32,000 nucleotides of DNA from assembly GCA_001761425.1 (NCBI GenBank), contig CP012986.1, forward strand, positions 90,001 through 122,000, read 5' to 3'. The translations under genes were made by a program, and so were the position numbers. How positions within the stretch are numbered: the first letter of the stretch is position 1; each line of letters starts with the position of its first letter. This DNA is from Candidatus Saccharimonadota bacterium. Its GTDB lineage: Archaea; Nanohalarchaeota; Nanosalinia; Nanosalinales; Nanosalinaceae. Shown one piece after another: positions 4,718 through 32,000 of this stretch. The notes beneath the pieces are model-generated. The model saw only the letters and a list, made by a program, of their open reading frames with translations, was not told where the DNA came from and did no database searches.

Positions 4718-5028
4718 CTCAGCTCCATCACTGCTTCCGCTACGTCGTCCGAGTTCTCCAGTGCTTGTTCTGCTTCTTCTCTTGAGGCCTCTGTTTTCTC
4801 CATGACGAGTTCGATGTCGTCTTCTTCAGGGCCTGTGTCTTTCTGTTCTTCTGTATAGTTGCCCTGTAACTGGAACATCTCCTGACCCTGTGCATCGATC
4901 TTGGAGATCTCTGGACTATTGAACACCATTTTCTTATCGCCCACATGGACTTCGACTTTGTCTGCGTTGATTTCTTCCATGTCGACGCCCATCTGCTTCA
5001 TCATCTGCTGCATATTTCCTCCAAACAT
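4714..5028 (-). CDS. nac: Nascent polypeptide-associated complex protein (archaeal NAC alpha)
   Basis: MFGGNMQQMMKQMGVDMEEI... NAC domain followed by a C-terminal UBA-like segment (IELVMEKTEASREEAEQALENSDDVAEAVMELS). Confidence 0.85.
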   Translation of the reverse strand: MFGGNMQQMMKQMGVDMEEINADKVEVHVGDKKMVFNSPEISKIDAQGQEMFQLQGNYTEEQKDTGPEEDDIELVMEKTEASREEAEQALENSDDVAEAVMELS

Positions 5029-5047
5029 ACCCTTGAATTATACCTTG

Positions 5048-5057
5048 TTTTTTAAAT
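5048..5057 (+). promoter_or_regulatory. TATA-like box for the DUF112 membrane-protein gene
   Basis: ttttttaaat is centred about 33 bp upstream of the ATG at 5086. Confidence 0.35.
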
Positions 5058-5085
5058 CCGTATGCGTCCTAACCCAAACAGGAAA

Positions 5086-6268
5086 AATGCTTGATCTAGT
5101 GCTGGCGACAGGCCTCGGCGTACTCCTGGGAATATTTACAGGCTTTATTCCGGGTATTCATCCCAACACAGTTGTGTTCTCCAGCTTCCCGCTTTACTTC
5201 TCCTTCCAGATAGAGTTCACAGCATATGTATCCTTTATAGCAGGTCTTTCTGTCTGCCATACATTCCATGACTTTTTACCTGCTATATACCTGAATACTC
5301 CATCTGCAGAATCAGCAGTTGCCAGCCTTCCAGGAGCAGAGATGGCAGGGGAAGGAAAAGGGCCTACAGCATTCTTCCACACAGTCTATGGAGGCCTTAC
5401 AGCTGTCTTCGCCGTTATACTTTTGACTCCTCTGCTTTTTCTCTTCCTTGAACCTCTCTACAGTTACGCTACCTCATTCATGCCGTTTATCCTTGTCTTT
5501 TTCCTCCTGTTCATAGTTATCAGCAACGGGAGTCTTTCAGGCCTTTTTGTCGCCTCTGTATCCGGTATTCTAGGATTGCTTGCTTTCAGGCAGCCTGTGA
5601 ACCAGAGTTTTATCCTGATGCCTGTTTTCGCAGGTCTTTTCGCTGTTCCTGCTGTTATCGAGGTCTGGAGAAGCGATAAAGATATAGTGGATCAGGAGGA
5701 GGCTGAGGAAAGTTTCTCCCTGCGAGGAGGCCTTGTGGGCTTTGTTTCAGGGCTCATCGCTGGTACTGTTCCTGGTGTAGGTGCTGGTGCTGGTACTTCT
5801 TTTCTGTCGCCTCTTATAGAAAAGAGGGAGGAGGTTCTTACAGGCCTCGGTGCTGTTAACACTTCGGACATTTTTGTGTCTTTGATAGTGCTTTTCTTGC
5901 TGGAGAAGGCTCGTTCCGGTGCTTCTGTGGCTGTGAATACTCTTGGAAATTTGACTCCTAGCCTTTTGGCTGTAACATATGGTTCAAGTCTCGTGGCAGT
6001 AGGCCTTTCTGTTCTCCTTGTTCCGTACACTCACGATGTCTTTCTGGGAGCTGTCAAATCTTTAAAGGTCAGAAATATTTTAGTTGCTGTTTTAGGCCTT
6101 ATCTGTGGTTTAACTATTTATTTCACTGGTTTTCCAGGCTTTTTGACTTTACTGACCTCATCTGCTATAGGCCTCTTGGCATGGCGTGAGGACTGCAGGA
6201 TATGCGGTATGGCGGTGCTTATTGTGCCTGCGCTGTTTTTCTATCTGGATATGGGTATTTTTATTTAG
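5086..6268 (+). CDS. TctA/DUF112-family integral membrane protein
   Basis: ORF-track ORF 4901..6268 trimmed to the ATG at 5086 (MLDLVLATGLGVLLGIFTGFIPGIHPNT), because the upstream extension is antisense to nac. It is polytopic with a duplicated GxxPG(I/V)G pattern typical of the TctA/DUF112 family. Confidence 0.7.
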
Positions 6269-10631: not shown

Positions 10632-11378
10632 TTAGCGAGTGTCTTTCCATTTTCCGCCGTAGATGTAGCCGGAAAGATTTCTGTCAGATGTTAGATGTTC
10701 GAATACTGTATCGAGGCCTTCGGCATCGAGTTGGGAGAATATCTCCGGTTCAAAGATGTATGTTCCTGCGTTGATCAGTCTGGAAGGTTCTGCTCCGGGA
10801 TCGGGTTTTTCCTCGAATCCTAGGATGGTTCTGCCTTTCAGTTTGACCACGCCGTACTCCGAAGGGTTCTCTACTGTGGTGAGGGCCATGGTCGCTATGT
10901 TTGCTTCATCTCTGTGTACTTTGAGCATGTCTTCTACGTCCACGTCTGTGAGGACGTTTCCGTTGACTGCGAGGAAGGTCTTGCCTATCCTTTCTCCGGT
11001 TTTGGATAAGGCCTTTGCTGTTCCCTGTGGCTCTGATTCTTCGAAGTATTCTATTGCTGCTCCGCGGTATGAGGAGCCGAAATGATTTTCTATCTCTTCC
11101 TGGTTGGAGCCTGAGAGAAGTATTATTCTGTCGATTTCCTCTCCTGTAAGGTGGTCAAGTACGTGGCTGAGAACCGGTTTTCCTTCATGGATCTCCATTG
11201 ACTGTCCTTGTTCACCGCCACAGAAGACGACTGCGGTGTCAAGGCCTTGAGAGGATAGGTAGTCCTGTACGATCTCCTCCATCATCTGGGAACGGTTCAG
11301 GTTCTTTCTTCCGGCTTCCGAGTCAACTTTGTCAAGAAGTTCCTCTTCAAGAGTAAGGGAGATCCTCTGCTTGGCCAT
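10632..11378 (-). CDS. Ribbon-helix-helix (CopG-like) domain fused to a sugar-phosphate nucleotidyltransferase-like domain
   Basis: The N-terminus KQRISLTLEEELLDKVDSEAGRKNLNRSQMMEEIVQDYL fits the RHH pattern. The rest resembles the G1P/M1P nucleotidyltransferase fold (GKPVLSHVLDHL, GTAKAL, EKPDPGAEPSRLINAGTYIFEPEIF). The N-terminal GxGxR loop reads GGEQGQSM, with no Arg. Confidence 0.8.
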   Translation of the reverse strand: MAKQRISLTLEEELLDKVDSEAGRKNLNRSQMMEEIVQDYLSSQGLDTAVVFCGGEQGQSMEIHEGKPVLSHVLDHLTGEEIDRIILLSGSNQEEIENHFGSSYRGAAIEYFEESEPQGTAKALSKTGERIGKTFLAVNGNVLTDVDVEDMLKVHRDEANIATMALTTVENPSEYGVVKLKGRTILGFEEKPDPGAEPSRLINAGTYIFEPEIFSQLDAEGLDTVFEHLTSDRNLSGYIYGGKWKDTR

Positions 11379-14309: not shown

Positions 14310-15107
14310 ATGATAGACGGAGAGGAAATCGCGGAAGAACTCCTTTCAGAGCTTGAAAAAGTCGATGCCTCTCCGAAGCTCAGGATAATTCTTGTCGGGG
14401 AGAATCAAGCTTCAAAGACCTTTGTAGACGAGAAAATCGAGGCAGCGGAGAGAATAGGTTTCCGGGCAGAAGTAGAGAAATTTCATGAAAATATAGAGGA
14501 ACAAGAAGTGATTGAAGAGGTAAAGGCCGGGAACAAGGCCTCAGACGTTCACGGTATTTTGGTACAGCTTCCTCTCCCGGAACAGATAAGTGAAGAAAGG
14601 GTTTTTGAAGCCCTGAAAACTTTGAAAGATGTGGACGGATTGACACCTAAAAACATGGGAAAAACACTGAGAGGAGAACCCGAAATCCTGCCAGGTGCTG
14701 TAGAAGCTGTCGAGAAGATTCTGGAACAGGAACTGGGTAGTCTTGAAAGCCTTGAAGTCACGGTAATCAATAACTCTAACCTGATAGGGAGGCCTCTATC
14801 CATGGTGCTGAGCGAGAGAGGGGCGACCGTAACTTTATGCAACAGGAAAACTGAAGACCTGGAAAAACACACAGAGAAAGCCGATGCAGTGGTGACAGCT
14901 ACCGGACAGAGAGGTGTTTTAAGGCCTGAAATGGTGAGAGAAGGTACTATCGTGATCGATGCCGGTTACAGCCTGGGAAAAGGAGATATAGAGGATAAAG
15001 AAAAGATGGACCGGAAAACAAGCTTTTGCGGAGTTCCAGGCGGTGCCGGGCCTCTAACCGTCGCAGTCACGATGAAAAATCTTTTGAACTGCTACAGAAA
15101 TCAGTGA
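14310..15107 (+). CDS. folD: Bifunctional methylenetetrahydrofolate dehydrogenase/cyclohydrolase FolD
   Basis: ILVGENQASKTFV, GILVQLPLP, DVDGLTPKN, NNSNLIGRPLSMVL...TVTLCNRKT, and GVPGGAGPLTVAVTMKNLL. Confidence 0.9.
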   Translation: MIDGEEIAEELLSELEKVDASPKLRIILVGENQASKTFVDEKIEAAERIGFRAEVEKFHENIEEQEVIEEVKAGNKASDVHGILVQLPLPEQISEERVFEALKTLKDVDGLTPKNMGKTLRGEPEILPGAVEAVEKILEQELGSLESLEVTVINNSNLIGRPLSMVLSERGATVTLCNRKTEDLEKHTEKADAVVTATGQRGVLRPEMVREGTIVIDAGYSLGKGDIEDKEKMDRKTSFCGVPGGAGPLTVAVTMKNLLNCYRNQ

Positions 15108-15778
15108 TCCAGCTCTTCTTCCGGAGTAATATCTATACCAACGAAAAACCTCTGACCATCCTCCTCAAAGTATGCAAGGCCTTCATCCGTGTAACTTAAC
15201 GCCTTCAGCTTGTCAATGACTTCCTCGACTTTTTTCTCCTCTCTCATCTCTAACTCTGAGAACTCGTCCAGTTCCTTCCTGTAATGAGTTGTGCCCATGT
15301 TCTCTATCTGCTCGTTTGCTTTAGGTCCTTCTCTGATCCTCTCCCAGTTCTCCTTGAAAAGTTCAACCTGTTTTTCCATCAACCGTTTCCTGAGGCTCTT
15401 CGACGTATCCTCAGTAGAAGTTCCGACTTTTTCCTTTGCGATTACAGGGCCTTCATCGATCTCCTCCGTCATAAAATGAATGGAGACTCCTGGGGGCGTT
15501 CCGTCAACCAACGGCCAGATATACGGGTGTGAGCCGCGGTTGTACGGCAGATACGACGGATGAAGGTTAACTATGCCTTTCTCCGGAACATCTATTATCT
15601 CCCCTGGAACCTTATGCCTGAAGCCCGACGAAACTACAATATCCGGCTCAAGCTCTTTGATAAGCGAAAGCTGATCCTTCTCAGTCAACAGAGCAAGAAT
15701 TTCAACGTCCTCCCTCTCGTTCAGCCATTCGTAAACCTCTTCACCGGCATCGTTCATCCCCAGGAAAACCGCTTCCAT
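15101..15778 (-). CDS. Formyltransferase (Fmt/ArnA-N-like; probable sugar N-formyltransferase)
   Basis: NLHPSYLPYNRGSHPYIWPLVDGTPPGVSIHFMTEEIDEGPVIA matches the formyl_trans_N catalytic core (N..H...D). The ORF is trimmed from the TTG at 15805 to the ATG at 15778 (MEAVFLGMNDAG). Confidence 0.8.
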   Translation of the reverse strand: MEAVFLGMNDAGEEVYEWLNEREDVEILALLTEKDQLSLIKELEPDIVVSSGFRHKVPGEIIDVPEKGIVNLHPSYLPYNRGSHPYIWPLVDGTPPGVSIHFMTEEIDEGPVIAKEKVGTSTEDTSKSLRKRLMEKQVELFKENWERIREGPKANEQIENMGTTHYRKELDEFSELEMREEKKVEEVIDKLKALSYTDEGLAYFEEDGQRFFVGIDITPEEELDH

Positions 15779-15818
15779 AGAACAAAAAAAGGCCTCAACA
15801 TTCAATTAACTAACGGCC

Positions 15819-15870: not shown

Positions 15871-16788
15871 TCACATATAGCCTAAGCGCCTCAATTTATC
15901 CATAATTTCTTTGTCGTCTTTGTTCTGGGCTCTTCCTGCACGTTCCTTTGTGTTCTCGACGTCCTGTAGCCAAGCTGGCTTATCTTCGCTCTTGTCTGTG
16001 GATACTTCGGAACCTAAAGAGCGGAATCCTGCCCAGTACTTCGGTGAGATAGGCACGTCTTCCTTGGAAAGGCCTTCCGGCAGATCTTCTTCCGTTTCCG
16101 GGTATGAGTTGATGTCGATTCCTGTGATGTCCGGTGTCATGTGGAACCATGAGACGTCCCAGACGTCTCTTTCGTCTAGCTGGAGTATTGGGTGGACTCT
16201 AATGTGTTCTGGTTCGTCACGAGGAGAGTAGAAGTCTTCGTCTCCCCTGCTTTCGTGTTCGTCCCAGCGAACTCCGTTGATGACAGCGTTGATACCTTCT
16301 TCCTCCAGTAGGGAGTTCATCGGCACAGTCTTCAGAAGATGGTTTCCTGCTTCTGTGTCCATCAGCCACGGAACTTCGTCCATATCTTCGTCGATCCTCG
16401 CTGCTTCTTCCTGATTGGTATCGTTAAGCTCTGCGACAGGAACCATTTCACCCGGTTCATCTGCTTTCTCAATCAAGTCTTCGTTCTTCGCCGTCAGAAC
16501 CTCGAATCCCCAGTCATCGGCCAGTCTCTCGACGTAGTCTTCTAGTTCGTCGAAGTGTTGTCCGTGGTCTACAAACATGAACCTTGGTTTATCGAGGCCT
16601 TCTCTTTCACAGACTCTCTTGACGAGCCATGCTGTAAGAGTGGAGTCTTTTCCCCCTGTGAAACCTATGACTGTATTCTCTGAATCGTATTCTTCAAGTG
16701 CTCTTTTGACAACTTCTTCTCCTGCTCTGATTTTGGCTTTTATAGGCGCGTTCTCAATTTCTTCACGTGTAACTGGTGCTTCTGGCAT
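15871..16788 (-). CDS. PP-loop ATP pyrophosphatase of the PAPS-reductase/CysD family, most like sulfate adenylyltransferase subunit 2
   Basis: PP-loop GFTGGKDS. GVRWDEHESRGDEDFYSPRD, IRVHPILQLDERDVWD, FRSLG and the C-terminus ERAGRAQNKDDKEIMDKLRRLGYM parallel E. coli CysD as I recall it (GGARRDEEKSR...FRD, FRTLG, ERQGR...MELKKRQGYF). There is no CysH-type C-terminal ECGLH cysteine motif. Confidence 0.8.
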   Translation of the reverse strand: MPEAPVTREEIENAPIKAKIRAGEEVVKRALEEYDSENTVIGFTGGKDSTLTAWLVKRVCEREGLDKPRFMFVDHGQHFDELEDYVERLADDWGFEVLTAKNEDLIEKADEPGEMVPVAELNDTNQEEAARIDEDMDEVPWLMDTEAGNHLLKTVPMNSLLEEEGINAVINGVRWDEHESRGDEDFYSPRDEPEHIRVHPILQLDERDVWDVSWFHMTPDITGIDINSYPETEEDLPEGLSKEDVPISPKYWAGFRSLGSEVSTDKSEDKPAWLQDVENTKERAGRAQNKDDKEIMDKLRRLGYM

Positions 16789-18118: not shown

Positions 18119-18826
18119 CTAGATATCGAGTTCCTTCATCTCTTCCCGAAGTTCTCTGAGTTCCTCAGGATTATCTACTTCTCTCCAGAACTCATCGCTG
18201 ACATCTACAGCTTCAAAATAGGTCTCATCAAGAATTTCACCGACCGCGGAGTCGAACCACTGTGTTCTGTCATCTTCAGAAATCTTATCTGCCGTGTCAA
18301 AAAGAAGCTTTGAGTCCTCCGCTACGACTCCAAAGACCTCAGTAGTGACACCGTCGTACTCTTCAGGATTTTTACCTAGAATCTCTGTCATTCTACCATT
18401 CTCAACCCGAACCTTGATTGACTCATCATCTGGAGTCTCCATATCCAGAGGATAACCCGAGGAATCAATATCCATTATGCTTTCGAGAAGGCCTTCAGAG
18501 AAAATCGCATCTCCATTAATTACAAGGAAATCCTCGCCTTCAGCGAAGCTTCTTGAAAGCTTGAATGAGTAGAGATTATCAGTTTCGTCCCATATATCAT
18601 TCTCAATAAGTGTAATATCTGTATCCGAAAATCTTTTTTCAAATTCTACCGCCATATAGCCCACTACAATAGCGATATCTTTTTCTTCAAGGCCTTGTTT
18701 CTCTAGAAGCCGGATCTGTCTCTCGATTATGGTTCCATCATTTAATTCAAGAAGTCCTTTCGGTGTATCTTCCGTCAAAGGCCTCATTCTTGTTCCGGGA
18801 CCTGCTGCAAGTATGACTGCTTTCAT
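18119..18826 (-). CDS. Cytidylyltransferase-like nucleotidyltransferase (LicC/IPCT-like), paralog A
   Basis: MKAVILAAGPGTRMRPLTEDTPKGLLEL...IAIVVGY...TDNLYSF...FLVINGDAIF...FWREVDNPEEL. The ORF is trimmed to the ATG at 18826, which overlaps the upstream stop (TAATG). It is about 70% identical to 27532..28233. Confidence 0.8.
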   Translation of the reverse strand: MKAVILAAGPGTRMRPLTEDTPKGLLELNDGTIIERQIRLLEKQGLEEKDIAIVVGYMAVEFEKRFSDTDITLIENDIWDETDNLYSFKLSRSFAEGEDFLVINGDAIFSEGLLESIMDIDSSGYPLDMETPDDESIKVRVENGRMTEILGKNPEEYDGVTTEVFGVVAEDSKLLFDTADKISEDDRTQWFDSAVGEILDETYFEAVDVSDEFWREVDNPEELRELREEMKELDI

Positions 18827-19536
18827 TATTTCATATCCTCCTTTATACTTCTGAACCTCTTTATTACGAGAAAGGTTGCTGCCGTTGACGCAGCTACAGG
18901 GTAGAAAATCCTCCAACTTCCTCCTGTAATCGCGTCAAGTGCGAGGAATCCAGCCAGCGGGTGAGTTATCCCTCCTGGACTTGTAACCAGGTGTTTTCCT
19001 GTATCTATAGCCTTCCTAATGATATTCTTATCTCTGGGTGAGTAACCCCCAGAATGGGCCTCATCGTTCCCGTATTCTCCTAGCAGCGATAGAAGCGTGA
19101 ACATAATTCCTCCTGAGGCCGAAAAAGTGAGTAGAGGGACGCTACCAGTCATCCTGTAAGCGCCGAAGGCTGAGACATAGATGATAAACGAATTGGTTAT
19201 AGGATGGCTGATTTTGTCGAGGAACCCGCCGAAATCTGACGTGGAATCTGTCAAGACAGCGATCTCTCCATCCGAACAGTCCAGAACATAGTAAAGCTGG
19301 TACATCACCCATCCAATGACCCAGTAAACCAAGGAGGTCGAGTAGAACATGAAAGAGCCTGCTACAGCCATGACAAGGCCTAGAAACGTTATCATGTTCG
19401 CAGAAGCACCTAACCTCAGGAAAATCCATGTGAAGAACGGCGATAGACGCCTAAGAAAAAAGTAGGCGTAAACAGTCTCGTTCTCACCTTTCTTATCAAC
19501 TGCGAAATCCCTAAGTTCAGACAGAGACTTGCCCAT
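18826..19536 (-). CDS. CDP-alcohol phosphatidyltransferase-family membrane protein (variant motif)
   Basis: Polytopic membrane protein. DG-EI-A-V-x8-G-x3-D-x3-H matches the exact spacing of DG-x2-AR-x8-G-x3-D-x3-D, with R->V and the terminal D->H. Confidence 0.75.
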   Translation of the reverse strand: MGKSLSELRDFAVDKKGENETVYAYFFLRRLSPFFTWIFLRLGASANMITFLGLVMAVAGSFMFYSTSLVYWVIGWVMYQLYYVLDCSDGEIAVLTDSTSDFGGFLDKISHPITNSFIIYVSAFGAYRMTGSVPLLTFSASGGIMFTLLSLLGEYGNDEAHSGGYSPRDKNIIRKAIDTGKHLVTSPGGITHPLAGFLALDAITGGSWRIFYPVAASTAATFLVIKRFRSIKEDMK

Positions 19537-23599: not shown

Positions 23600-23881
23600 A
23601 TGACTGCCGAAGAACAGATGTATGGGCCTTTCAGAATGGAGGAAACCTACGCCTTAGTATTCAGCCATAATTCCGATACAGAAGTATACAGAGATGTAGA
23701 AGAAGTTCTAGACGAAGTGAAGGAGGATATAGGCCGGAATACATATGAAGACCTAGCTGACATTTACGGTGAAGAGGCTCTAGATGAAATAGATCATGTA
23801 TCTCATTTAGACGATGTTCAGGATGGAGTCGGATGTACGGAGATATGGGAGAAAATGAGTGAGAGACGCGCACAAGACTAG
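23600..23881 (+). CDS. Small highly acidic hypothetical protein
   Basis: 93-aa ORF with an ATG start and coding-like composition. I recognise no family. Confidence 0.45.
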   Translation: MTAEEQMYGPFRMEETYALVFSHNSDTEVYRDVEEVLDEVKEDIGRNTYEDLADIYGEEALDEIDHVSHLDDVQDGVGCTEIWEKMSERRAQD

Positions 23882-23888
23882 TCAAACT

Positions 23889-23897
23889 AATTTATAC
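23889..23897 (+). promoter_or_regulatory. TATA-like box for the UDP-sulfoquinovose synthase gene
   Basis: aatttatac is centred about 26 bp upstream of the ATG at 23919. Confidence 0.4.
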
Positions 23898-23918
23898 TTT
23901 CGAACTCACTGTCTTACT

Positions 23919-25064
23919 ATGGCTATACTGGTTACAGGCGCAGACGGATACATGGGCTGGCCAACAGTTCTAAGACTGGCAGAGAGAAACCCTGAAGAAA
24001 GAATAATTGGAGTAGACAACCTCGCACGCAGAGACTGGGTTGAAGAAGTAGGAAGCGTCTCCGCCACAGAAATAGACTCAACAGAAGAAAGATACATTTC
24101 AAAAGATAATATCAGCTTTGTAGAAGGAGATCTATCTAACCGGGACTTCGTAAAAGATATACTGGAAGTTCATCAACCCGATACAGTAGTTCACCTAGCT
24201 GCACAGCCTTCAGCACCTTACTCCCAGATAAATGGAGAGAGAGCACTGGAGACACAGAAGAACAATATCTCCATGACCCTGAACCTTCTATGGGGCCTGA
24301 AAGAGACAGGCCTTGAAGACACTCACTTTATCGAAACTACAACTATGGGAGTCTACGGCGCACCAGAGTTCGAGATACCGGAAAACGGCCTAGATGTAGA
24401 AAGAAAGGGAGGCGAAGATAATATACCTTACCCCGCGATGGGAGGAAGCTGGTATCACCAGACTAAGTCCTTTGACGCAGGAAATCTCAGACTCGCTAGC
24501 GGACATTGGGATCAACCGATCTCCGACCTAAGAACAGCGATCGTCTACGGAACAGAGACAGAAGAAACCAAAGAAACAGGCCTTGACACGCGTTTCGACT
24601 TCGACTACTACTTCGGAACTGTCGTGAACAGGTTCTGCGCACAGGCAGTAGCAGGATACCCTATCACAGTCTACGGCAAAGGAGAGCAGAGAAAACCAAT
24701 GATAAGCCTGGAAGACGCAGTAGAAAGCATCGCGCAGCTAGTGGAAAAAGGCCACAGTGGAGAAGGAGTAGAAGTCTACAACCAGATCACAAGGCCCGTA
24801 GCCATCGTGGAACTCGCAGAAACTATCGAAAAAGTTGCCCAAGAGATAGGGCTCGATACAGAAGTCAAGCACTATGAAAACCCTAGAGACGAGAAAGAGG
24901 ACCACAAGATGGAGGTAGAAACCGGGAAATTTATGGATCTCCTCGGAGAACAGAAAGTAGACATAGAAGAAGGAGTAAGAGACATTCTAAAAACACTGAA
25001 AGAACAGCAGGAGAAAATAGAAAACCACGAAGACAGGTTCCTACCAGGCGTCCTAACTGATTGA
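23919..25064 (+). CDS. sqdB: UDP-sulfoquinovose synthase (SQD1/SqdB/Agl3 family)
   Basis: Near-colinear motif match to SQD1 as I recall it: GADGYMGW (GGDGYCGW), VDNLARR (VDNLVRR), SAPYS, TTMGVYG (GTMGEYG), IPYP, SWYHQTK (SFYHLSK), DLRTAIVYG, FDFDYYFGTVVNRFCAQAVAGYPITVYGKGEQ, and NPRDEKEDH. The ORF is trimmed to MAILVTG. Confidence 0.9.
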   Translation: MAILVTGADGYMGWPTVLRLAERNPEERIIGVDNLARRDWVEEVGSVSATEIDSTEERYISKDNISFVEGDLSNRDFVKDILEVHQPDTVVHLAAQPSAPYSQINGERALETQKNNISMTLNLLWGLKETGLEDTHFIETTTMGVYGAPEFEIPENGLDVERKGGEDNIPYPAMGGSWYHQTKSFDAGNLRLASGHWDQPISDLRTAIVYGTETEETKETGLDTRFDFDYYFGTVVNRFCAQAVAGYPITVYGKGEQRKPMISLEDAVESIAQLVEKGHSGEGVEVYNQITRPVAIVELAETIEKVAQEIGLDTEVKHYENPRDEKEDHKMEVETGKFMDLLGEQKVDIEEGVRDILKTLKEQQEKIENHEDRFLPGVLTD

Positions 25065-25073
25065 GAGCTAGAT

Positions 25074-26606
25074 ATGAAAGGAGAGGATTATCTAGACTCT
25101 AAACCAAGTTTGGACAGACTTAACCATTTGGACCTGCTCAAATCAGTATTGAAAGAAGCAGGAGTTAATAAAGAAGATATAATGCTTTATGGCAGTTCTA
25201 TAACTGCTATATATGGTATAAAACCCAATAACGATCTAGAATTCATACCGCACCCAGATGTAAGATCAAATTTTCTAGAACTCGCTGAGGAGAATCCTGA
25301 TATAAACAAGGCTAGAAACGGTCAAATCCATTTTCCAGGAGAAGTAAAAGCAGTATGGGAACCCGGGAAATTCGAACCCTTCGGCTGGAGCGATGAAGAA
25401 CTGTTTGAAGATGAGACATGTTACATAGAAACTAAAGGATACAAGTTCCTCAAGTTAGAGCTTTTCGTTTCTCTTAAAGCAGCTAAAAGGCGTCCAAAAG
25501 ATTTTGAACATATAGATTTGCTTGAGGAAGAAGATTACATAGGCGGGGAAGACTGGAACTGGGAGCTAGTTCACCAGTTACCGCCCTGGGAACGCAGAGA
25601 AAGGCCTCCAAAGAGTCTCATAGAGATAGGTAGAGATTCCATAAAACAGTACGGCCTATTTTACACAGCAGCCAGAGGACCTACATATGTGGCTTCTCAT
25701 CTAGGATCAAAGGCCCTCCAGAAAATCGGTGCTAATAATGAGGCCGTCAAGGATAAACTTCAGACAACAGGAGAGAACTTGAAACCATTTATCGAACGAA
25801 ATAATCAATATCAGGTTCCTGCTCTTCTTAATGACCAGTTTGATGATGAAGAATTTGAACGCTATGATTTGGTTGCAGCTATACTTTATTTAGAGGGAAA
25901 AGAGGAGTTCAAGGATTTCTTCGAAGGCGAGGACTACGAAGAACAGATTTCTGTTACTCCAAAAGGAAGGTTGAACGGAGGGCTACTTGAGCTTGCAAAC
26001 AAGCTCGCCGAGATTTCAGAAGACGAGACAGATCTAGCCACAATAGATATTTCAGTGAAAATATCCCGTAAACCTTCTATCTCAAAAAGAGGGCGCTCCT
26101 GGGCTGAAAACAAATTTGGACCAGATAGAGTAGAACTTCTAGAGAATAGGAAAGAAGAACTGCTGGAAAACTCAGGAGTTTATTTCTACGCCATGCTTTG
26201 GCCTTCTGTCAGAGATTATCATGATGAAATTGAAGCCTGGATTCAAGACAGAATAGAGGTAAAAGAAAGCATCAACCTGGACCTAAAGGAGAATATACAC
26301 GACTATCTAGAATCTGTATATTCTGTGGATGCTAGGCCTTCAGACTGGGAGAAGGAGAGAAAGATTAAGAAAATACAGTCTTTCGGCTCCGAAGTAAGTG
26401 TTCTGAAATTAAGAGTTGATAATCCCGACTTTTGGTATGAAGAGGACGAACCAATCTCTAATACTGTCCACAGTCTTAAGCAAAAGTGCAGGAAAGAATT
26501 TCAGAAAAGGGTAGAGAACTACGAATATGGAGTTATAACCCATTTCACAGACAACTATGAACATAACGCGCACAACTCTAAAATCCTAGATAGGTACAAA
26601 TCATAA
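25074..26606 (+). CDS. Uncharacterised 510-aa protein with an N-terminal Pol-beta-superfamily nucleotidyltransferase-fold domain
   Basis: LYGSSITAIYGIKPNNDLEFI fits hG[GS]-x9-13-Dh[DE]h. The downstream KAAKRRPKDFEHIDLL resembles the R.KD..D+..L helix of small-molecule NTases. The C-terminal ~130 aa (GVYFYAMLWPSV...VITHFTDNYEHNAHN) weakly resembles an NDK-like fold. Confidence is high that this is a real gene and low for its function. Confidence 0.6.
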   Translation: MKGEDYLDSKPSLDRLNHLDLLKSVLKEAGVNKEDIMLYGSSITAIYGIKPNNDLEFIPHPDVRSNFLELAEENPDINKARNGQIHFPGEVKAVWEPGKFEPFGWSDEELFEDETCYIETKGYKFLKLELFVSLKAAKRRPKDFEHIDLLEEEDYIGGEDWNWELVHQLPPWERRERPPKSLIEIGRDSIKQYGLFYTAARGPTYVASHLGSKALQKIGANNEAVKDKLQTTGENLKPFIERNNQYQVPALLNDQFDDEEFERYDLVAAILYLEGKEEFKDFFEGEDYEEQISVTPKGRLNGGLLELANKLAEISEDETDLATIDISVKISRKPSISKRGRSWAENKFGPDRVELLENRKEELLENSGVYFYAMLWPSVRDYHDEIEAWIQDRIEVKESINLDLKENIHDYLESVYSVDARPSDWEKERKIKKIQSFGSEVSVLKLRVDNPDFWYEEDEPISNTVHSLKQKCRKEFQKRVENYEYGVITHFTDNYEHNAHNSKILDRYKS

Positions 26607-26611
26607 CCAAG

Positions 26612-27478
26612 ATGAGACTAATTTTGAAGGGAATTCAATGTCTGAAGGAAGAAGGCCCTAAAACATTCTCCAGAAAATTCTACAGATACTCTTCTCAAAT
26701 ACCTTTCAAGATAGCCAGATCAAAAGTTCCAAGGCTATACTATTCTACGGCAGAACGCTGGCATAGATATTTCAGAGATTTCAACACAGATTCCTGGGAA
26801 GCTCCTCTAAACCCATACAAAACCATATGGATAAATTCAGATGAAATCAACGAAGTCACAGGAAGAGTACCCAACCTGCCTTTTGAAGAGAGGATTAAGA
26901 AATTCGGAGAAGTCAAAGAAGGAGACTGGGATATAACAGACCAAATACAGTACCAGGCATGGTATCCAGAGAAATACGGAGATAACAAATGGCTCTATGA
27001 TTTACTCTATGATAAAAAAGTGGAGGAAACTGTTTTCTTCAGATCAGCTGATAACCATTTCAAGAACAATATTGATTGGGAGAACACAGAATTCTACCGG
27101 AAAATGATAGAAGGTTTTGATAATGAGAAATCCGGTTTTCCTACCTATGGAAGAAATGAAAAAGAGCTCAAACAAAATTTAAGAGGAATAGACCGCCTTT
27201 ACGACAAAATAAAGGACAAAGGCGTGAAGCAGCAACATCAGATAAAAAAGAAATGTTATCTACACCTATTGAACGATTCCATATTAGTTGATATTTCGAG
27301 AAACGGTAAATTCCTTTTCGTAGAAGGTAGAAGGCGCCTAACTATTGCCAAAATTCTGGATTTGGAGAAAATTCCGGTCAAAGTACAGGTTCGTCATCCT
27401 CAATGGATGGATTATCGAGACAAGGTTTACAACCAGAAGTCAGGAGAGGGGCATCCCGATTTCTCTGAATTCCGATAA
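26612..27478 (+). CDS. Uncharacterised 288-aa protein with a C-terminal ParB/Srx-fold domain
   Basis: FLFVEGRRRLTIAKILDLEKIPVKVQVRH closely parallels ParB box II (GERRxRAAkllGl.eIPv.V), the nucleotide-binding arginine patch. I do not recognise the N-terminal 200 aa. Confidence 0.6.
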   Translation: MRLILKGIQCLKEEGPKTFSRKFYRYSSQIPFKIARSKVPRLYYSTAERWHRYFRDFNTDSWEAPLNPYKTIWINSDEINEVTGRVPNLPFEERIKKFGEVKEGDWDITDQIQYQAWYPEKYGDNKWLYDLLYDKKVEETVFFRSADNHFKNNIDWENTEFYRKMIEGFDNEKSGFPTYGRNEKELKQNLRGIDRLYDKIKDKGVKQQHQIKKKCYLHLLNDSILVDISRNGKFLFVEGRRRLTIAKILDLEKIPVKVQVRHPQWMDYRDKVYNQKSGEGHPDFSEFR

Positions 27479-27531
27479 ATTTATTTTCTCAAACCATTAA
27501 TTGAATAAAGTAAGTTTCAGCAAAATATTAT

Positions 27532-28233
27532 ATGAAAGCAGTCATCCTAGCAGCCGGGCCAGGCACAAGAATGAGGCCTCTGACTGAAGATTGTCCAAAA
27601 GGCCTACTTGAGTTAAATAATGAGAGTATCATTGAGAGACAAATTAGGATCTTGAAGGACTGTGGTCTGAGAGAGCGTGATATTTCTATTGTTATAGGTT
27701 ATTGCGCGGAGGACTTTAGAAGAGAGTTCGAGAACAGAGATATTAGGTTAATTGAGAACGAAGACTGGAGCAAAACTGATAATCTTTATTCATTCAAGTT
27801 ATCCAGAGATTTTGCGGAAGGAAAAGACTTCCTTGTAATCAACGGGGACGCCATATTTTCCAAAGGACTGATAGAAAAGACTATAGCAATTGGATCTTCG
27901 GGTTATCCGCTAGACATGGAGACTCCAGACGATGAATCCATCAAGGTTGAAGTTCAAGATGGCCAAATGACAAGGATTTTGGACAAGGATTCCGAAAACT
28001 ATGATGGAGTCACCACTGAAGTGTTTAGAATTTCAGATGAGGATTCAGAGAAAATCTTTGATGCTGCAGAGAAGATATCAGAGAAAGACAAAACGCAATG
28101 GTTTGACTCCGCAGTTGATCAAATACTAGATAAGGCTCAATTCTCGGCTATTGACGTCAGCGACCAATTCTGGAGAGAAGTAGACAATCCAGAAGAACTC
28201 GAGGAGGTCAGAGAAGAACTTAAGAACCTCTAA
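27532..28233 (+). CDS. Cytidylyltransferase-like nucleotidyltransferase (LicC/IPCT-like), paralog B
   Basis: MKAVILAAGPGTRMRPLTEDCPKGLLEL... is colinear with 18119..18826 over its full length. Confidence 0.8.
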   Translation: MKAVILAAGPGTRMRPLTEDCPKGLLELNNESIIERQIRILKDCGLRERDISIVIGYCAEDFRREFENRDIRLIENEDWSKTDNLYSFKLSRDFAEGKDFLVINGDAIFSKGLIEKTIAIGSSGYPLDMETPDDESIKVEVQDGQMTRILDKDSENYDGVTTEVFRISDEDSEKIFDAAEKISEKDKTQWFDSAVDQILDKAQFSAIDVSDQFWREVDNPEELEEVREELKNL

Positions 28234-29374
28234 CTTGATCTAGAATATGCTCTGCCTGCAGACCTTCTTTCCTGTATTTGAATACTTCTTTTTTCTTATC
28301 TTTGTAATCCGTATCTTCTTTTTCCAAGTTCTTCAGAGCTTCTTCAAGTTCTTCAACTGTATTTACCTGTTTTCCCGGGACCAAATGCTTAATCTCATTG
28401 TTTAATCCTCTTTTTTTCTCGTATTCTTCTTTGTCATATTCAAATCGGATTATTGGTTTGCCTGTATGCATATAATCAAATACAACTGAAGAGTAGTCGC
28501 TAATTAAGGCCTCCGATTCTTTGAGAAGTAGGTATGGATCTAGATTGTTTTCTGAAATCATGATATTGCTGAACTCTCCAGATAGGTCGAATCTATGATG
28601 AGGTTTTAATACCATCTTCATGTCGAGTCTTTCAAGTATAGCATCTATTTTGTCTAGATCGATATCTCCTTCTATACTCTCATCTTCATCATATCTTCTG
28701 TAGGTAGGCATGTAGACGATGTAATCTTCTGAAGGAGGTTCTTCCGAGAAGAGTTCATGACCTCCTATCTCTTCATAAAATATATCATTTCGGGGATACC
28801 CCGCACAGACTACCTCTGAAGTCCTGAAGACTTTTTTGTAAAGTCCAAGATATTTTTTACTTGTCTCGAGGAAGAAATCAGGCTTATAGAACATCCTATG
28901 ATAAATAGAACTAACTGCTTCTATCAAATCTCCGCCAGACTCTTTATCAGATATAATATTCTTATACGGAAATCCGTGCCATAGATTAACTTTATTCGAC
29001 CCAAGATAGAGCCAGGAGTTCAGACTTATAGGCGAATAATTATCAAAAAATACATATTGTGCTCTCAAAAGTTTGTACTTTGCTCTCAGAGTATTAGAGT
29101 TGATAGCATTGAACCCTTTTTCCGACAAAGTATCTACAACTTCCTCATCATCACTAATCCAAACTAAATCCATACCTATCTCCTCGGTTTCAGCAAGTTC
29201 CAGAAACATGTACTTTGAATTATGAGCGAATTTTCCCAGCGAAGTGGTGAAGACAGCAAGATCCTGATCCTTAGGAAAGATTTTGGACAAAAATCCGGAG
29301 AGAAACATTAGAAATCTCTGCTTAATCTTAAGATTAAACAATATTCTTCTTACTTGGTCTAGAACTGAAGCCAT
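28220..29374 (-). CDS. CDP-glycerol glycerophosphotransferase family protein (TagB/TagF-like)
   Basis: YMPTYRRYDE (compare YAPTWR), LKPHH, and LISDYSSVVFDYMHTGKPIIRFEYDKEEY (compare the LITDYSS..FDF....KP.IFF..D...Y signature). Confidence 0.8.
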   Translation of the reverse strand: MASVLDQVRRILFNLKIKQRFLMFLSGFLSKIFPKDQDLAVFTTSLGKFAHNSKYMFLELAETEEIGMDLVWISDDEEVVDTLSEKGFNAINSNTLRAKYKLLRAQYVFFDNYSPISLNSWLYLGSNKVNLWHGFPYKNIISDKESGGDLIEAVSSIYHRMFYKPDFFLETSKKYLGLYKKVFRTSEVVCAGYPRNDIFYEEIGGHELFSEEPPSEDYIVYMPTYRRYDEDESIEGDIDLDKIDAILERLDMKMVLKPHHRFDLSGEFSNIMISENNLDPYLLLKESEALISDYSSVVFDYMHTGKPIIRFEYDKEEYEKKRGLNNEIKHLVPGKQVNTVEELEEALKNLEKEDTDYKDKKKEVFKYRKEGLQAEHILDQVRGS

Positions 29375-29440
29375 TAAACTATCTTAAAATCTTGAGATTT
29401 TAAATTATACTCGTCAAAACTCTAAACAGGCCTTTAGAAT

Positions 29441-30358
29441 ATGAAATTAATTTCAATCATTATTCCTACATACGAGAGAGAAGAGATTTTGGAAGAAACA
29501 TTGAACTCCATCCTTGACCAAAATTATGACGAATGGGAGGCTATCATAGTTGACGATAATAAAGATAGTTATCAGGAGTCTGTAAAAGATATCGTGAAGG
29601 CCTTTGATGAGAAATCGGAAAACAGTTTCAGATATGTTCTGAACACTGACGGGCAGGGTCCTGCTTCTGCTAGGAATCTTGGAATAAGTGAAGCTGAGGG
29701 AGATTATGTTGCTTTCCTGGATGATGATGATCTCTGGAAGCCTTCTAAGCTGGAGAAGCAGATAAAATCTTTGGAAGATTATGGGTTTGAGGCTTCTCAT
29801 ACTTCGAGACAGATGGATACCTCCTCAGACCATCCTGAGCATGTGGTTGAGGCCGTGGATGTTACTGATATAGGACAGGTTCTCTCTGGTAATCCTATCG
29901 CTACTTCTTCTGTGCTTGTTGAGAAGAGCTATCTGGAAGAGGTAGATGATTTTGATGAGGAGAGAGACGGAGGTGAGGACTGGCATCTTTGGGCGAAACT
30001 GGCCGATCACGGATGCAGATTCAAGGCAGTTAAAGAGCCTCTTACTGTAATTAATATGGAAATTGGGTCTTTCTCCTCAAAATCTGAGACCTCTACCCCT
30101 GGAAAGGACAAACTTACCGAAGAGTTCAGAGACGAACTAGAATCTGATAACAGGATTGCCTCGCAATATTACCTAAGTAGGGGAAAGGAACACCTGAAGT
30201 TCAAGAACTTTGATAAATCCGAGGAAATGTTGAGAAAGGCCTTGAAACACGACAAGGCGAACCATCAGGCCTATATTTTCCTGCTCTCAGGTAAGATTGA
30301 GAGAACAACAGGCCTGAATATGGTAGATCCCCTGGTAAAGATCAAGCACATGTTCTAG
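29441..30358 (+). CDS. Family-2 glycosyltransferase with a C-terminal TPR-like extension
   Basis: ISIIIPTYEREEILEETLNSILDQNY..WEAIIVDDN, ARNLGISEAEGDYVAFLDDDDLW (DxD). The C-terminal KSEEMLRKALKHDKANHQAYIFLL is TPR-like. Confidence 0.85.
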   Translation: MKLISIIIPTYEREEILEETLNSILDQNYDEWEAIIVDDNKDSYQESVKDIVKAFDEKSENSFRYVLNTDGQGPASARNLGISEAEGDYVAFLDDDDLWKPSKLEKQIKSLEDYGFEASHTSRQMDTSSDHPEHVVEAVDVTDIGQVLSGNPIATSSVLVEKSYLEEVDDFDEERDGGEDWHLWAKLADHGCRFKAVKEPLTVINMEIGSFSSKSETSTPGKDKLTEEFRDELESDNRIASQYYLSRGKEHLKFKNFDKSEEMLRKALKHDKANHQAYIFLLSGKIERTTGLNMVDPLVKIKHMF

Positions 30359-31185
30359 GTTACCTCAAGCCATGGTACAGTATACTGCTTTGGATTATCG
30401 CTTTCTTCCTGGTGTCCCCAGTCGTTGTGTTCGCCCAAGGCCTCTCCATGGTCTGCAGTCACTACTACTTTGCCGTCCAGTTCTTCAACGAGGCGGGCTA
30501 CTTGTTCCAAAGCCATCCTGAGGTCTTGTTCGTAGTGTTTGCGGACTTTTTCTTCTCCTATGTCCTGTACTAGTGCTCCCCAGTGAGGATTTTCGAGGCC
30601 TAATGCGTCTTTGATTTTCCACCGTGTTCTGTAAGGTAGTTTCCAGAAGAATTTGCTCCAGTAAGGCCTTGTCATCTCGATCATCTTTCTCTTCGTACTG
30701 GATTTCTCTGTTTCCTGGTCCTCTACTATCTGTTCCTGAAGGTTCCAGACTTTTTCTTCCTGTGGACAGCTAATGTAAGGCCTGTGTGGCTGGATATAAT
30801 GTATTATTGTTTTTCTACCGTCCGATTCTTCTATTACTTTATCTGTCAGGTCTTCTGGTAGTACAGTGTTTTGTTCTTTGTTCCAGTCTGTTGCCCAGAC
30901 GTCTTCGATCTCTCTGAAGGCCTTTGCCGGGTCCCAGTCCTCATGTGCTTTTCCGAGGCTGTTGATGTACGGATTTGCTGCGAAGTATCTGTAATTGTAT
31001 CTTGAGGTGAATGTTTTCGGCAGCCATTCCGGCGTCGAGGTTCCACGAGTTTTCACAGGCCTTAGATCGCCTTCGAGAAAGTCCTGATAGTTATCTCTGA
31101 AGTAATCGTACCGACATGCGTCTAAAACGATGAGGTAGTCCCAGTCGGATTCATGAATAGGCTGAATCTCAAGTTCCTCACTCAT
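30355..31185 (-). CDS. Soluble alkaline-phosphatase/sulfatase-superfamily protein (tandem copy 1)
   Basis: DWDYLIVLDACRYDYF (metal Asp), TRGTSTPEWLP (candidate Ser/Thr nucleophile), IHYIQPHRPYI, and VVVTADHGEALGEHNDWGH (compare sulfatase SDHGE.LGEHG). There is no CxPxR formylglycine motif. Confidence 0.7.
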   Translation of the reverse strand: MSEELEIQPIHESDWDYLIVLDACRYDYFRDNYQDFLEGDLRPVKTRGTSTPEWLPKTFTSRYNYRYFAANPYINSLGKAHEDWDPAKAFREIEDVWATDWNKEQNTVLPEDLTDKVIEESDGRKTIIHYIQPHRPYISCPQEEKVWNLQEQIVEDQETEKSSTKRKMIEMTRPYWSKFFWKLPYRTRWKIKDALGLENPHWGALVQDIGEEKVRKHYEQDLRMALEQVARLVEELDGKVVVTADHGEALGEHNDWGHQEESDNPKQYTVPWLEVT

Positions 31186-31188
31186 TTT

Positions 31189-32000
31189 CTAGGCCTCCTT
31201 CTCTCTTACTTCCAGCCATGGAACGTTCAGTAGTTCGTCTTCATTTCCACCGATATAGTGGCCCCAGCCGCCCTCGCCGAGAAGTTCGCCGTGGTCCGCA
31301 GTCACTACTACTTTGCCATCAAGGCCTTCTATTAGTCTCTTTACTTCTTCTAATGCGAGTCTAAGGTCTTTCCTGTAGTATTCCTTGACTTTTTCCTCTC
31401 CTTTTTCTCTCGCTAGCTTCTCATAGTCGTTTCCAAGGCCCAATGCTCCTTTAATTTTTGCCTGGAATGTATAAGGTATGGACGAGAACACTGGGTCCCA
31501 GACAGGTCTTGTCGCATCCAGTGCTTTTCTCAAAACAGTTTCTTCTTCGTCTTCAAGCTTGTTTTTCGGCGCCCACTCAAAATTTTTCTCATTCATTGAG
31601 ATGAAAGGTCTGTGTGGCTGGATATAATGTATTACTGTTTTTGAGTATTCGAGGTTTTCCAGTGCTGTATCTGTCAGGTCTTCAGGCCTTACAGTGTTTA
31701 ATTCGTCGTCCCAGTCTTTTATCCAGGAGTCAACGACGTTCTGGAACTGTTCAGGCGCTTTCCAGCTCCAGTCTTCTCCGCTGACCAAGTCTCCAAGTGT
31801 GAGGCCTTCTCCGTTGATATATGGGTTCGCAGAGATGTAGTTGTAGCTGTATCTCCCTGTGAATGTATTTTTCAGCCACTCTGGTGTCGCAGATCCTCTT
31901 GACCTAACCTTCTTTAACTCGCCTTCTAGAAAGTCTTCGTACTCTTGTTCAAAAATGTCGTATCTGCATGCGTCCAGAACGATCAGGTAGTCCCAGTCTG
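31189..32000 (-). CDS. Soluble alkaline-phosphatase/sulfatase-superfamily protein (tandem copy 2; the 5' end lies beyond the window)
   Basis: The ORF-track start at 31788 is a TTG. My translation stays open upstream to the window end (...DWDYLIVLDACRYDIFEQEYEDFLEGELKKVRSRGSATPEWLKNTFTGRYSYNYISANPYINGEGLTLGDLVSGEDWSW...), colinear with copy 1. Confidence 0.7.
   Translation of the reverse strand, partial: DWDYLIVLDACRYDIFEQEYEDFLEGELKKVRSRGSATPEWLKNTFTGRYSYNYISANPYINGEGLTLGDLVSGEDWSWKAPEQFQNVVDSWIKDWDDELNTVRPEDLTDTALENLEYSKTVIHYIQPHRPFISMNEKNFEWAPKNKLEDEEETVLRKALDATRPVWDPVFSSIPYTFQAKIKGALGLGNDYEKLAREKGEEKVKEYYRKDLRLALEEVKRLIEGLDGKVVVTADHGELLGEGGWGHYIGGNEDELLNVPWLEVREKEA

Follow-up and report, generated by a model that had tools for sequence, protein, structure and literature searches.

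The Lic pathway brings together a kinase, LicA, a cytidylyltransferase, LicC, and LicD, a phosphocholine transferase with a nucleotidyltransferase (NTase) fold. In the synthesis of the O-methyl-phosphoramidate (MeOPN) of Campylobacter, the NTP_transf_3-type cytidylyltransferase Cj1416 is followed by Cj1415, a kinase acting on a cytidine diphosphate (CDP)-linked intermediate, and then by methyltransferases. Catalysis by the nucleoside diphosphate kinases (NDK/NME) runs through a phosphohistidine. The analysis presented here concerns two adjacent genes of Nanohaloarchaea archaeon SG9, P1 (AQV86_00770) and P2 (AQV86_00775), located in a 32,000-nucleotide stretch of DNA (positions 90,001 to 122,000 of contig CP012986.1, assembly GCA_001761425.1), hereafter the window. 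On the evidence of profile alignments, these two genes are the two-gene ('split') version of a family that is usually encoded as a single chain, containing NTase, ParB/Srx and NDK-like domains.

ParB-fold proteins bind cytidine triphosphate (CTP) or ATP, and sulfiredoxin (Srx), SerK and SbnI are phosphotransferases (PMC12704722). A 2025 survey of the ParB-CTPase fold, seeded on PF02195, does not cover the P1/P2 architecture (PMC12704722). The family has no Pfam or NCBIfam model, it is found neither in PADLOC nor in the Protein Data Bank (PDB), and no published description of it was found. The component folds (NTase, ParB/Srx and NDK-like) are known, while neither their combination nor the family and its context is described in these resources or in the literature searched.

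The SG9 locus resembles the Lic and Tag systems in that it likewise couples a small, likely cytidylyltransferase with a CDP-alcohol transferase, an NTase-fold domain being predicted as well, and one related locus (L009) even holds an APH/ChoK-like kinase fused to a methyltransferase. However, the NTase domain of P1 is closer to minimal NTases (DUF6036, DUF2204, NTP_transf_2) than to LicD (PF04991), and the ParB/Srx plus NDK-like core has no counterpart in the Lic or Tag pathways. The MeOPN route offers a precedent both for a kinase working on a cytidine-linked donor directly downstream of the step of a small cytidylyltransferase and for methyltransferases as associated enzymes, but Cj1415 is an APS-kinase-like P-loop protein, in contrast to the ParB/Srx and NDK-like domains of P1 and P2, and there are no glutamine-kinase or amidohydrolase genes at the SG9 locus.

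Taking into account that their homologues are conserved, and that both genes adjoin in 12 of 14 related loci and in three relative orientations, P1 and P2 are real genes and not chance open reading frames (ORFs). A word-indexed search gave eight full-length homologues of P1, with 42-60% identity, and 16 homologues of P2, with 27-52% identity, the full-length homologues of P2 reaching 43-52%. Neither protein has a match in Pfam, NCBIfam, PADLOC or the PDB sequences, in agreement with the initial annotation of this DNA, which could assign neither of them to a characterised family. Searches of the PDB with shallow profiles of both proteins gave noise, apart from a weak match of P2 to SbnI. The layout that it described was confirmed by the ORF list, the two genes being co-directional and separated by 5 bp (26607-26611), with the NTP_transf_3 gene starting 53 bp 3' of P2. 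The adjacency of what it called a gene pair is borne out, and the pair is the split form of a usually single-chain family.

An exhaustive profile search of 1.84 billion representatives collected 863 members of the P1 family at E ≤ 1e-3, 414 of them at ≤ 1e-10 and 109 at ≤ 1e-30, the approximately 863 family clusters being clusters at 50% identity. Most members have a length of about 500 amino acids (aa) and the same architecture. In an alignment of 149 diverse members, the middle domain follows the consensus '...F..LI.SI...GF....I.....G.L.DG[SA]HRLA.AL......PV', a ParB/Srx motif. This domain (approximately 120 aa) is intact in 70 of the 149, which make up class A; the remaining sampled members, SG9 and its relatives among them, show a shorter middle domain devoid of the motif and constitute class B. 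Most bacterial members keep the domain intact and are not accompanied by P2. In the PDB, the class-A domain weakly matches sulfiredoxin, Spo0J and ParB, and in PADLOC the middle domain of the family matches the ParB-like N-terminus of ParB-methyltransferase fusions. When the middle domains of both classes were compared with hhalign, they matched with 98% probability (E 1.8e-13, 84 columns), class B having a deletion of the 'Y.KMQ..R...F..LI.SI..GF' segment and having lost DG[SA]HRLA. In the halophile clade to which SG9 belongs, the loss amounts to approximately 25-30 residues plus the motif, and the SG9 protein reads NGGLLELANKLA where its relatives show G...DG[SA]HRLA.

The class-A middle domain also aligns to the P2 family (approximately 96% probability, E 4e-9 to 8.5e-9, 53-85 columns, P2 residues 143-261), while no significant match was obtained between the class-B middle domain and P2. 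P2 thus holds, in intact form, the very segment that is missing from class-B P1. The distribution of P2 follows the same line. It occurs beside class-B P1 genes, accompanying eight of ten distinct P1 proteins down to 28% identity, either co-directional and downstream, convergent or divergent, and at times as two tandem copies; conversely, among the loci compared (14 of class B and 69 of class A), it was not found in any of the 69 bacterial class-A loci. The class-A loci derive from a scan of 185,579 species genomes with the class-A alignment. A scan of the genome collection with the SG9-clade alignment gave no confirmed locus, a third word-indexed homologue search with a broad alignment returned only already known proteins, and a metagenome scan yielded three loci, one of them a duplicate. 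In Clostridia and Bacilli, the ParB-like (approximately 171 aa) and NDK-like (approximately 188 aa) modules are separate genes flanking a CMP (cytidine monophosphate)-synthetase. From this pattern, P2 may complement P1 functionally in trans, and the class-B pair of SG9 would be a case of domain decay in one protein offset by a separate ParB/Srx subunit.

The fold of P2 is ParB/Srx in its AlphaFold2 (AF2) model. This model, built on a 16-sequence alignment, has a mean predicted local distance difference test (pLDDT) of 79.7 and a predicted template modelling score (pTM) of 0.74, with the core above 85, and its top Foldseek matches in the PDB are all Noc, ParB, sulfiredoxin, SbnI or KorB (probability up to 0.99, E 7e-3 to 0.1, approximately 70-98 columns). 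The initial annotation had proposed this fold, which the structural matches and a weak SbnI profile match at the motif (E 0.55, 39 residues; structural E for SbnI 0.05-0.3) sustain, and the arginine patch that it quoted is indeed present, as E-G239-R-R-R242-L-T-I-A-K-I-L-D-L-E-K-I-P-V-K-V. The G-x-x-R-x-x-A phosphate-binding helix lies here, G239, R242, L243, A246 and K247 being invariant in the 16 homologues. In more distant homologues the sequence is G-x-H-R-L, and a C-terminal S-adenosylmethionine (SAM) methyltransferase is present in two of these (P0022 and P0024). The N-terminal extension of P2, of approximately 140 aa, has invariant motifs of its own (G99, G104-x-W106-D107, W156 and T159), and in the model it is long, basic and helical.

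Neither Pfam nor Foldseek revealed in P2 a PF02195 domain, a helix-turn-helix (HTH) or a dimerisation domain, and some 25 residues separate the ParB core from the C-terminus. A canonical ParB, that is, a CTP-dependent DNA clamp, was ruled out on account of the lack of PF02195 and HTH and the glycan genes around it. Placement as a SerK or SbnI by sequence was not achieved either, given the SbnI E value and the glycan-cluster context. Nevertheless, P2 and the internal domains of class A share with Srx, SerK and SbnI the fold and the G-x-[HR]-R-x-x-A nucleotide-phosphate-binding helix, and resemble them in lacking the two domains, HTH and dimerisation, that clamp-type ParBs possess. By analogy with the fold, binding of a nucleoside triphosphate (NTP; CTP or ATP) is predicted for P2. 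It differs from these enzymes by the absence of a significant sequence match, by its unique N-terminal extension, by being always coupled to an NDK-like domain, and by a context of glycan decoration instead of cysteine, siderophore or redox metabolism. It has to be noted that tandem P2-like duplicates exist (L001:1637-3356; L083:2235-3629; L079:1196-2047 and 4928-5716). In L079 (GCA_001563825.1), whose 9-kb contig has no P1, both copies are part of a glycan cluster, together with genes for a KpsF-like SIS+CBS protein, a pyruvyl transferase, a Methyltransf_21 protein, a glycosyltransferase of family 2 (GT2) and a faint MptE-like gene.

The C-terminal half of P1 is the best-modelled part of the protein (pLDDT approximately 85-90 in an AF2 model built on an eight-sequence alignment). 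With this model, all 50 top Foldseek matches in the PDB were NDK/NME proteins (E 5e-3 to 8e-2, probability approximately 1.0, target TM 0.45-0.71, approximately 150 columns). From residue 371 the predicted elements run strand, helix, strand, two-helix hairpin, strand, helix, short strand and helix, an order which we take to be the NDK topology. Residues W376, Y416, K430, K469, R473, H490 and D493 are near-invariant among the 149 diverse members, in class A as in class B, and all of them but the Trp, as well as the carboxylates of the NTase domain, look catalytic. The likeness to NDK predicted for residues of approximately 370-510 includes the beta-alpha-beta, helix hairpin, beta-alpha-beta-alpha order and a near-invariant His, with T/S-D after it, on the strand where NDK has its catalytic His, with the conserved Arg and Tyr at positions suggestive of R88/R105 and Y52 of NDK. 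The only segment aligned by hhalign set R473 on Arg105 and H490-F-T-D on H118-G-S-D, at a probability of ≤4% and with manually entered NDK sequences. A search with the profile of this domain against the PDB sequences gave coiled-coil noise and no NDK, a forced global alignment with hhalign aligned nothing, and PF00334 was not matched in Pfam by P1 or by the relatives scanned. Sequence-level homology to NDK was therefore rejected, profile, local and global alignments being all non-significant, and 'NDK-like' is used here, on the basis of the model, as a statement on the fold level only. Apart from this lack of detectable homology, P1 differs from NDK in that Trp376-Pro377 apparently replaces the Lys12 region, with Trp376 appearing to sit at the Lys12 position, and in that the domain is fused to further modules and located in glycan clusters, whereas NDK is a housekeeping gene.

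As regards the N-terminal module of P1, its signature suggests an NTase fold. The motif reads L-Y39-G40-S41-S42 ... D54-L55-E56, with E129 as third carboxylate, so that the hG[GS]-x9-13-Dh[DE]h signature and its downstream carboxylate are both present, with 12 residues between G-S and D54. The initial annotation wrote it as 'YGSS-x12-DLE', a motif that stands with the spacing amended, as 12 residues are counted from G-S and 11 from YGSS. The helix that it quoted is also found (R139-R-P-K-D-F-E-H-I-D-L-L150, which contains K142-D143). Within the 149 family members, G40-S41, D54, E56 and E129 are conserved in 85-93%, or in 80-93% when K142-D143 are included. A few relatives of P1 match NTase families of Pfam (DUF6036, DUF2204, NTP_transf_2 and MTPAP-like), and the region has a weak PDB profile match to the putative NTase TM1012; the confidence of AF2 is low here (pLDDT 40-75). 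LicD (PF04991) was matched neither by P1 (E ≤ 1) nor by approximately 96-97 relatives (E ≤ 0.01), and the NTase domain is absent from many bacterial relatives. Thus, the conserved signature of the initial annotation holds, but P1 is more than the NTase-fold protein described there, given the vestigial ParB/Srx and the NDK-like domains found, and the LicD-like transferase role that it suggested for P1 is not the conserved function.

Judging from its neighbourhoods, the family accompanies cytidylyltransferase-dependent glycan decoration as an accessory component in bacteria and archaea alike, a cytidylyltransferase being its constant partner. Bacterial members partner synthetases of CMP-nonulosonic acids (NulO), and the SG9 clade partners an NTP_transf_3 protein and a TagF-like transferase. 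The class-A loci belong to Flavobacteriales, Saprospiraceae, cyanobacteria, Spirochaetota, Verrucomicrobia, Lachnospiraceae, other Clostridia, Bacilli, Nautiliaceae and others. In a Pfam scan of 135 of their neighbour genes, CTP_transf_3 (15), Hydrolase_3 (14) and NeuB (13) lead. Local profile searches, with counts that take in short contigs and some partial matches and with ORFs called in the fetched loci by a simple longest-ORF heuristic, located a CMP-sugar synthetase in 49 of 68 bacterial loci (in 27 at a distance of ≤300 bp) and NeuB in 45 of 68, and a KdsC/KDN-9-P-type phosphatase of the HAD superfamily in 35 of 49, fused to the synthetase in 26. In Flavobacteriales, the operon order is Wzc, NeuB, CMP-synthetase::KDN-9-P-phosphatase, family member, 'HP'-motif protein, two successive GT4 glycosyltransferases and sulfotransferase. 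Fusions are also found, linking the ParB-NDK core to a CMP-synthetase (P0165), to a Maf NulO-transferase (P0095), to a Maf protein and a methyltransferase in a single chain of 1436 aa (L044), and to a SAM methyltransferase (P0163).

The two-gene arrangement of Clostridia and Bacilli is seen in L047, L054, L055 and L057 (at approximately 9.9-12.6 kb in each), where a CMP-NulO synthetase and a polysaccharide deacetylase are enclosed between the ParB-like and NDK-like genes. In L055, both modules are inside a complete NeuC-NeuB-CMP-synthetase cluster, with radical-SAM/SPASM, NUDIX, NeuC and NeuB genes upstream, and the NeuC-NeuB cluster of these bacteria also holds deacetylase, GDSL and radical-SAM genes. 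Adjoining class-A members in NulO operons are soluble proteins without family match (L014:11516-12643, plus strand; L010:8498-9898, plus strand), which contain 'KNHPR'/'KPHPR' motifs, one of them weakly matching an LpxB-like (GT-B) family (E 0.0056), and which are candidate novel CMP-NulO transferases. The idea that the P1 family itself is the NulO or phospho-alcohol transferase was down-weighted, as TagF-like or soluble 'HP'-motif proteins are present as transferase candidates.

Among the class-B loci, a TagF-like gene appears in all those with sufficient flank (the window, L001-L004, L006, L008, L080 and L081), and NTP_transf_3 in most, with homologues in L001-L004, L006/L007 and L084; the L006 homologue is fused to a NagD-type HAD, a protein that L009 encodes separately. 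The initial annotation had named the linkage of the pair to such genes in other genomes as a test of its proposal, and this linkage was recovered, the pair being together in 12 of the 14 class-B loci. In the window, the PF04464 alignment of the TagF-like protein spans profile positions 7-345 of 367, and the protein also matches TarL, TarF and TarB in NCBIfam, with scores under the equivalog cut-offs; its gene is convergent with NTP_transf_3 and overlaps it by 14 bp. In NCBIfam, the NTP_transf_3 protein matches best the IPCT half of IPCT/DIPPS (5e-28, with 98 bits where the cut-off is 580), with sugar-1-phosphate nucleotidyltransferase models scoring nearly as high. Of the 'cytidylyltransferase' first annotated here the NTP_transf_3 fold is firm and the IPCT match falls far below its cut-off. 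The gene plausibly encodes the phospho-alcohol cytidylyltransferase of the module, with a CTP specificity deduced solely from its TagF-like partner.

Beside a P1 relative (P0025), locus L009 encodes a 568-aa protein (297-2003, plus strand) with a weak methyltransferase match and the APH/choline-kinase-type sequence 'HGDFQPKN...DWE', as well as a NagD-type HAD phosphatase (3610-4368, minus strand). This set could represent a phosphocholine- or phosphoethanolamine-like branch. As a general partner of the family, a separate APH/choline-kinase-type kinase was discarded, as it is confined to L009 and, weakly, L080, and neither the SG9 window nor the clade close to it has one.

Taking into account that the same putative active-site residues are kept in CMP-NulO and CDP-alcohol contexts, the ligand shared by the family would be a cytidine nucleotide. 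Since ParB-fold domains bind CTP or ATP and some of them transfer phosphate, and since NDK uses phosphohistidine, it is proposed that the conserved core would transfer a phosphoryl group through a phospho-His490 intermediate on the NDK-like domain, with the ParB/Srx site, which is P2 in SG9, binding a nucleoside triphosphate or a cytidine nucleotide. The substrate would be the cytidine nucleotide common to all the linked pathways and, as the likeliest reaction, the CMP or CDP released by the TagF-like or NulO transferase would be returned to CTP for the adjacent cytidylyltransferase. The fusions to CMP-synthetase (P0165) and to Maf NulO transferases (P0095 and L044) link the family both to the synthetase and to the enzymes that release CMP. 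This reading, in which a His490-mediated phosphotransfer module serves the cytidine-nucleotide cycle, most likely by regenerating CTP from CMP or CDP, with P2 as the NTP site, is offered tentatively, as it stays short of probable. That the phosphohistidine relay amounts to a new enzyme class, either regenerating CTP on site or phosphorylating CMP- and CDP-linked donors, and occurring both in the NulO clusters of numerous bacterial phyla and, among halophilic archaea, in clusters of the teichoic-acid-like type, is conceivable but rather unlikely.

Several points weigh against CTP regeneration. The likeness to NDK is at the fold level, with Foldseek E values of 5e-3 or weaker and non-significant profile searches, the model of P1 rests on eight sequences only, and the equivalents of Lys12 and Asn115 of NDK are apparently missing in the family, as local alignment and strand order indicate. 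CMP is normally recycled by the housekeeping enzymes Cmk and Ndk, so a dedicated recycler in many clusters is not obviously needed. The conserved NTase domain has no role in the scheme, and the CTP specificity of the SG9 NTP_transf_3 protein is putative. Finally, SAM methyltransferase fusions recur (P0163 and L044, and the P2-like P0022 and P0024) and KdsC-type HAD phosphatases are frequent, so that an enzyme that decorates the glycan or supplies its precursor fits at least equally well.

As a decorating phosphotransferase, on the lines of Cj1415, the core would phosphorylate a sugar, a glycan or the ribose 3'-OH of a cytidine-linked donor, the phosphate being then methylated or extended; in SG9, the CDP-alcohol donor or the TagF product would be modified. 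The recurrent fusion or adjacency to SAM methyltransferases speaks for it, as do the presence of clostridial members among NulO-modifying genes (deacetylase, GDSL and radical SAM), the operon position between the CMP-synthetase and the candidate transferases, and a set of conserved residues (two Lys, Arg, His, Asp and Tyr) suited to a phosphoryl-transfer site. However, the presence of the same residues in clusters with chemically unlike products (NulO and teichoic-acid-like) favours a shared nucleotide ligand, and we know of no NDK-fold enzyme that phosphorylates sugars. Decoration is the main rival of CTP regeneration, and is deemed unlikely. A precursor route was the proposal of the initial annotation, with P2 as a SerK/SbnI-like kinase producing a phospho-alcohol, NTP_transf_3 activating it to CDP-X, and the TagF-like protein and/or a LicD-like NTase in P1 performing the transfer. 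It draws on the ParB/Srx fold and the appearance of SbnI in both structural and sequence comparisons, on the conserved linkage to NTP_transf_3 and TagF-like genes, on the fact that no further kinase was found in the SG9 window or close clade, and on the HADs that are fused or adjacent in L006 and L009 or of KdsC type in 35 of 49 loci, which fit a kinase-phosphatase-nucleotidyltransferase route. Nevertheless, the NeuC-NeuB-CMP-synthetase cluster of L055 is complete and needs no precursor kinase, L009 has its own weak APH/choline-kinase-type protein and a neighbour in L080 a weak APH match, fusions to Maf transferases make little sense for such a kinase, the similarity to LicD was not found, the NTase domain is dispensable in many relatives, and the scheme leaves out the most conserved part, the NDK-like His domain. 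Taken as a whole it is doubtful: possible for the SG9 clade, a phospho-alcohol kinase is disfavoured as the conserved function of the family.

A role without pathway chemistry is also conceivable, in which the ParB/Srx domain, like that of ParB and Noc, is a CTP- or ATP-gated switch that tunes or assembles the cytidylyltransferase-transferase complex in response to the supply of nucleotides. The best-known role of ParB-fold proteins is that of a CTP switch (PMC12704722), members of the family adjoin or are fused to the synthetase as well as the transferase, and the long basic N-terminal helical region of P2 could mediate interactions, but the near-invariant His, Asp, Arg, Lys and Tyr and the NTase carboxylates look catalytic and the HTH and dimerisation domains typical of clamp-type ParBs are not there, which leaves a purely regulatory or scaffolding function improbable. 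The reading as a defence or mobile-element module, made of an NTase and a ParB-like nuclease landed in a variable glycan island, recalls that both domains are common in conflict systems and that the GC content drops to 37-41% between 25 and 30 kb in the window. It was rejected as highly improbable, since neither P1, P2 nor their relatives have a PADLOC match and the linkage to glycan genes is consistent, syntenic across phyla and accompanied by fusions to glycan enzymes.

Table 1. Positions, in the window, of the gene pair, of the predicted modules of its products and of the genes of the surrounding glycan island.
Feature	Coordinates	Strand	Remarks
P1 (AQV86_00770)	25074-26606	+	510 aa, ORF list; 100% identity to Nanohaloarchaea archaeon SG9 protein
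P1 N-terminal module (~aa 1-175)	25074-25598	+	Pol-beta-type nucleotidyltransferase motif domain
P1 middle module (~aa 243-335)	25800-26078	+	Truncated, motif-degenerate ParB/Srx-like domain
P1 C-terminal module (~aa 340-510)	26091-26603	+	NDK-like alpha/beta domain (predicted)
P1 His490 codon	26541-26543	+	Near-invariant residue
P2 (AQV86_00775)	26612-27478	+	288 aa, ORF list; 100% identity to SG9 protein
P2 ParB/Srx core (~aa 190-262)	27179-27397	+	Homologous to the intact internal domain of class-A members
NTP_transf_3 nucleotidyltransferase	27532-28233	+	233 aa; PF12804 1.5e-12
TagF-like CDP-alcohol (glycerol/ribitol-phosphate) phosphotransferase	28220-29374	-	384 aa; PF04464 2.1e-49
GT2 glycosyltransferase with C-terminal TPR-like tail	29441-30358	+	PF00535 2.5e-33; conserved neighbourhood
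Two tandem alkaline-phosphatase-superfamily (sulfatase/PglZ-like) paralogues	30355-31788	-	PF00884 7.5e-7
UDP-sulfoquinovose synthase	23859-25064	+	NCBIfam 1e-113
Second NTP_transf_3 paralogue	18119-18916	-	Overlaps CDP-alcohol phosphatidyltransferase gene
CDP-alcohol phosphatidyltransferase	18826-19536	-	Overlaps second NTP_transf_3 paralogue
PAPS-reductase-domain protein	15871-16788	-	Same island
Formyltransferase	15101-15805		Same island
FolD	14310-15107		Same island

The pair lies in a glycan island (Table 1) in which Pfam and NCBIfam recognise a flippase, two SDR enzymes, UDP-sulfoquinovose synthase, GT2 and two sulfatase/PglZ-like genes. A homologue of the GT2 gene holds the equivalent position in L006, and paired sulfatase/PglZ-like homologues accompany the P1/P2/TagF module in L006 and L008; in SG9, these two paralogues have approximately 200-276 aa each and no obvious membrane domain. 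The PAPS-reductase-domain protein, UDP-sulfoquinovose synthase, formyltransferase and FolD together suggest that the SG9 glycan contains sulfonated and N-formylated sugars. A very acidic 93-aa ORF (23600-23881, plus strand) overlaps the annotated GTG start (23859) of the UDP-sulfoquinovose synthase, whose true start may be further downstream, its NCBIfam alignment starting at residue 21. The second NTP_transf_3 paralogue and the CDP-alcohol phosphatidyltransferase (18119-19536) resemble a split IPCT/DIPPS, pointing to two separate CDP-alcohol systems in the island. An unusual fusion is seen in a sugar-phosphate nucleotidyltransferase (10632-11378, minus strand), which bears an N-terminal ribbon-helix-helix (CopG) domain. 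The GC content is 37-41% across positions 25000-30000, against 44-50% elsewhere in the window, and related modules are found on contigs of 43-49% GC bearing the haloarchaeal marker families HVO_A0114, PIN_halo and DUF7437 (L002 and L004). The GC dip and these markers hint that nanohaloarchaea and the haloarchaea that host them have exchanged the module.

Sialic-acid-like sugars and teichoic-acid-like polymers shape the contacts of microbes with hosts, phages and symbiotic partners, and the pathways leading to them are held to be well mapped. The family described here suggests that a widespread step of cell-surface glycan building probably is still to be found. If cytidine nucleotides are indeed recycled or modified by this module, a missing step would be added to the NulO and teichoic-acid-like pathways, the chemistry of the ParB/Srx and NDK folds would be extended, and the enzymatic synthesis of sialosides could improve. 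Should a phosphohistidine relay on cytidine nucleotides be confirmed, the enzyme class would be categorically new. The SG9 pair, for its part, provides a clean test case for a separate subunit replacing a decayed catalytic domain.

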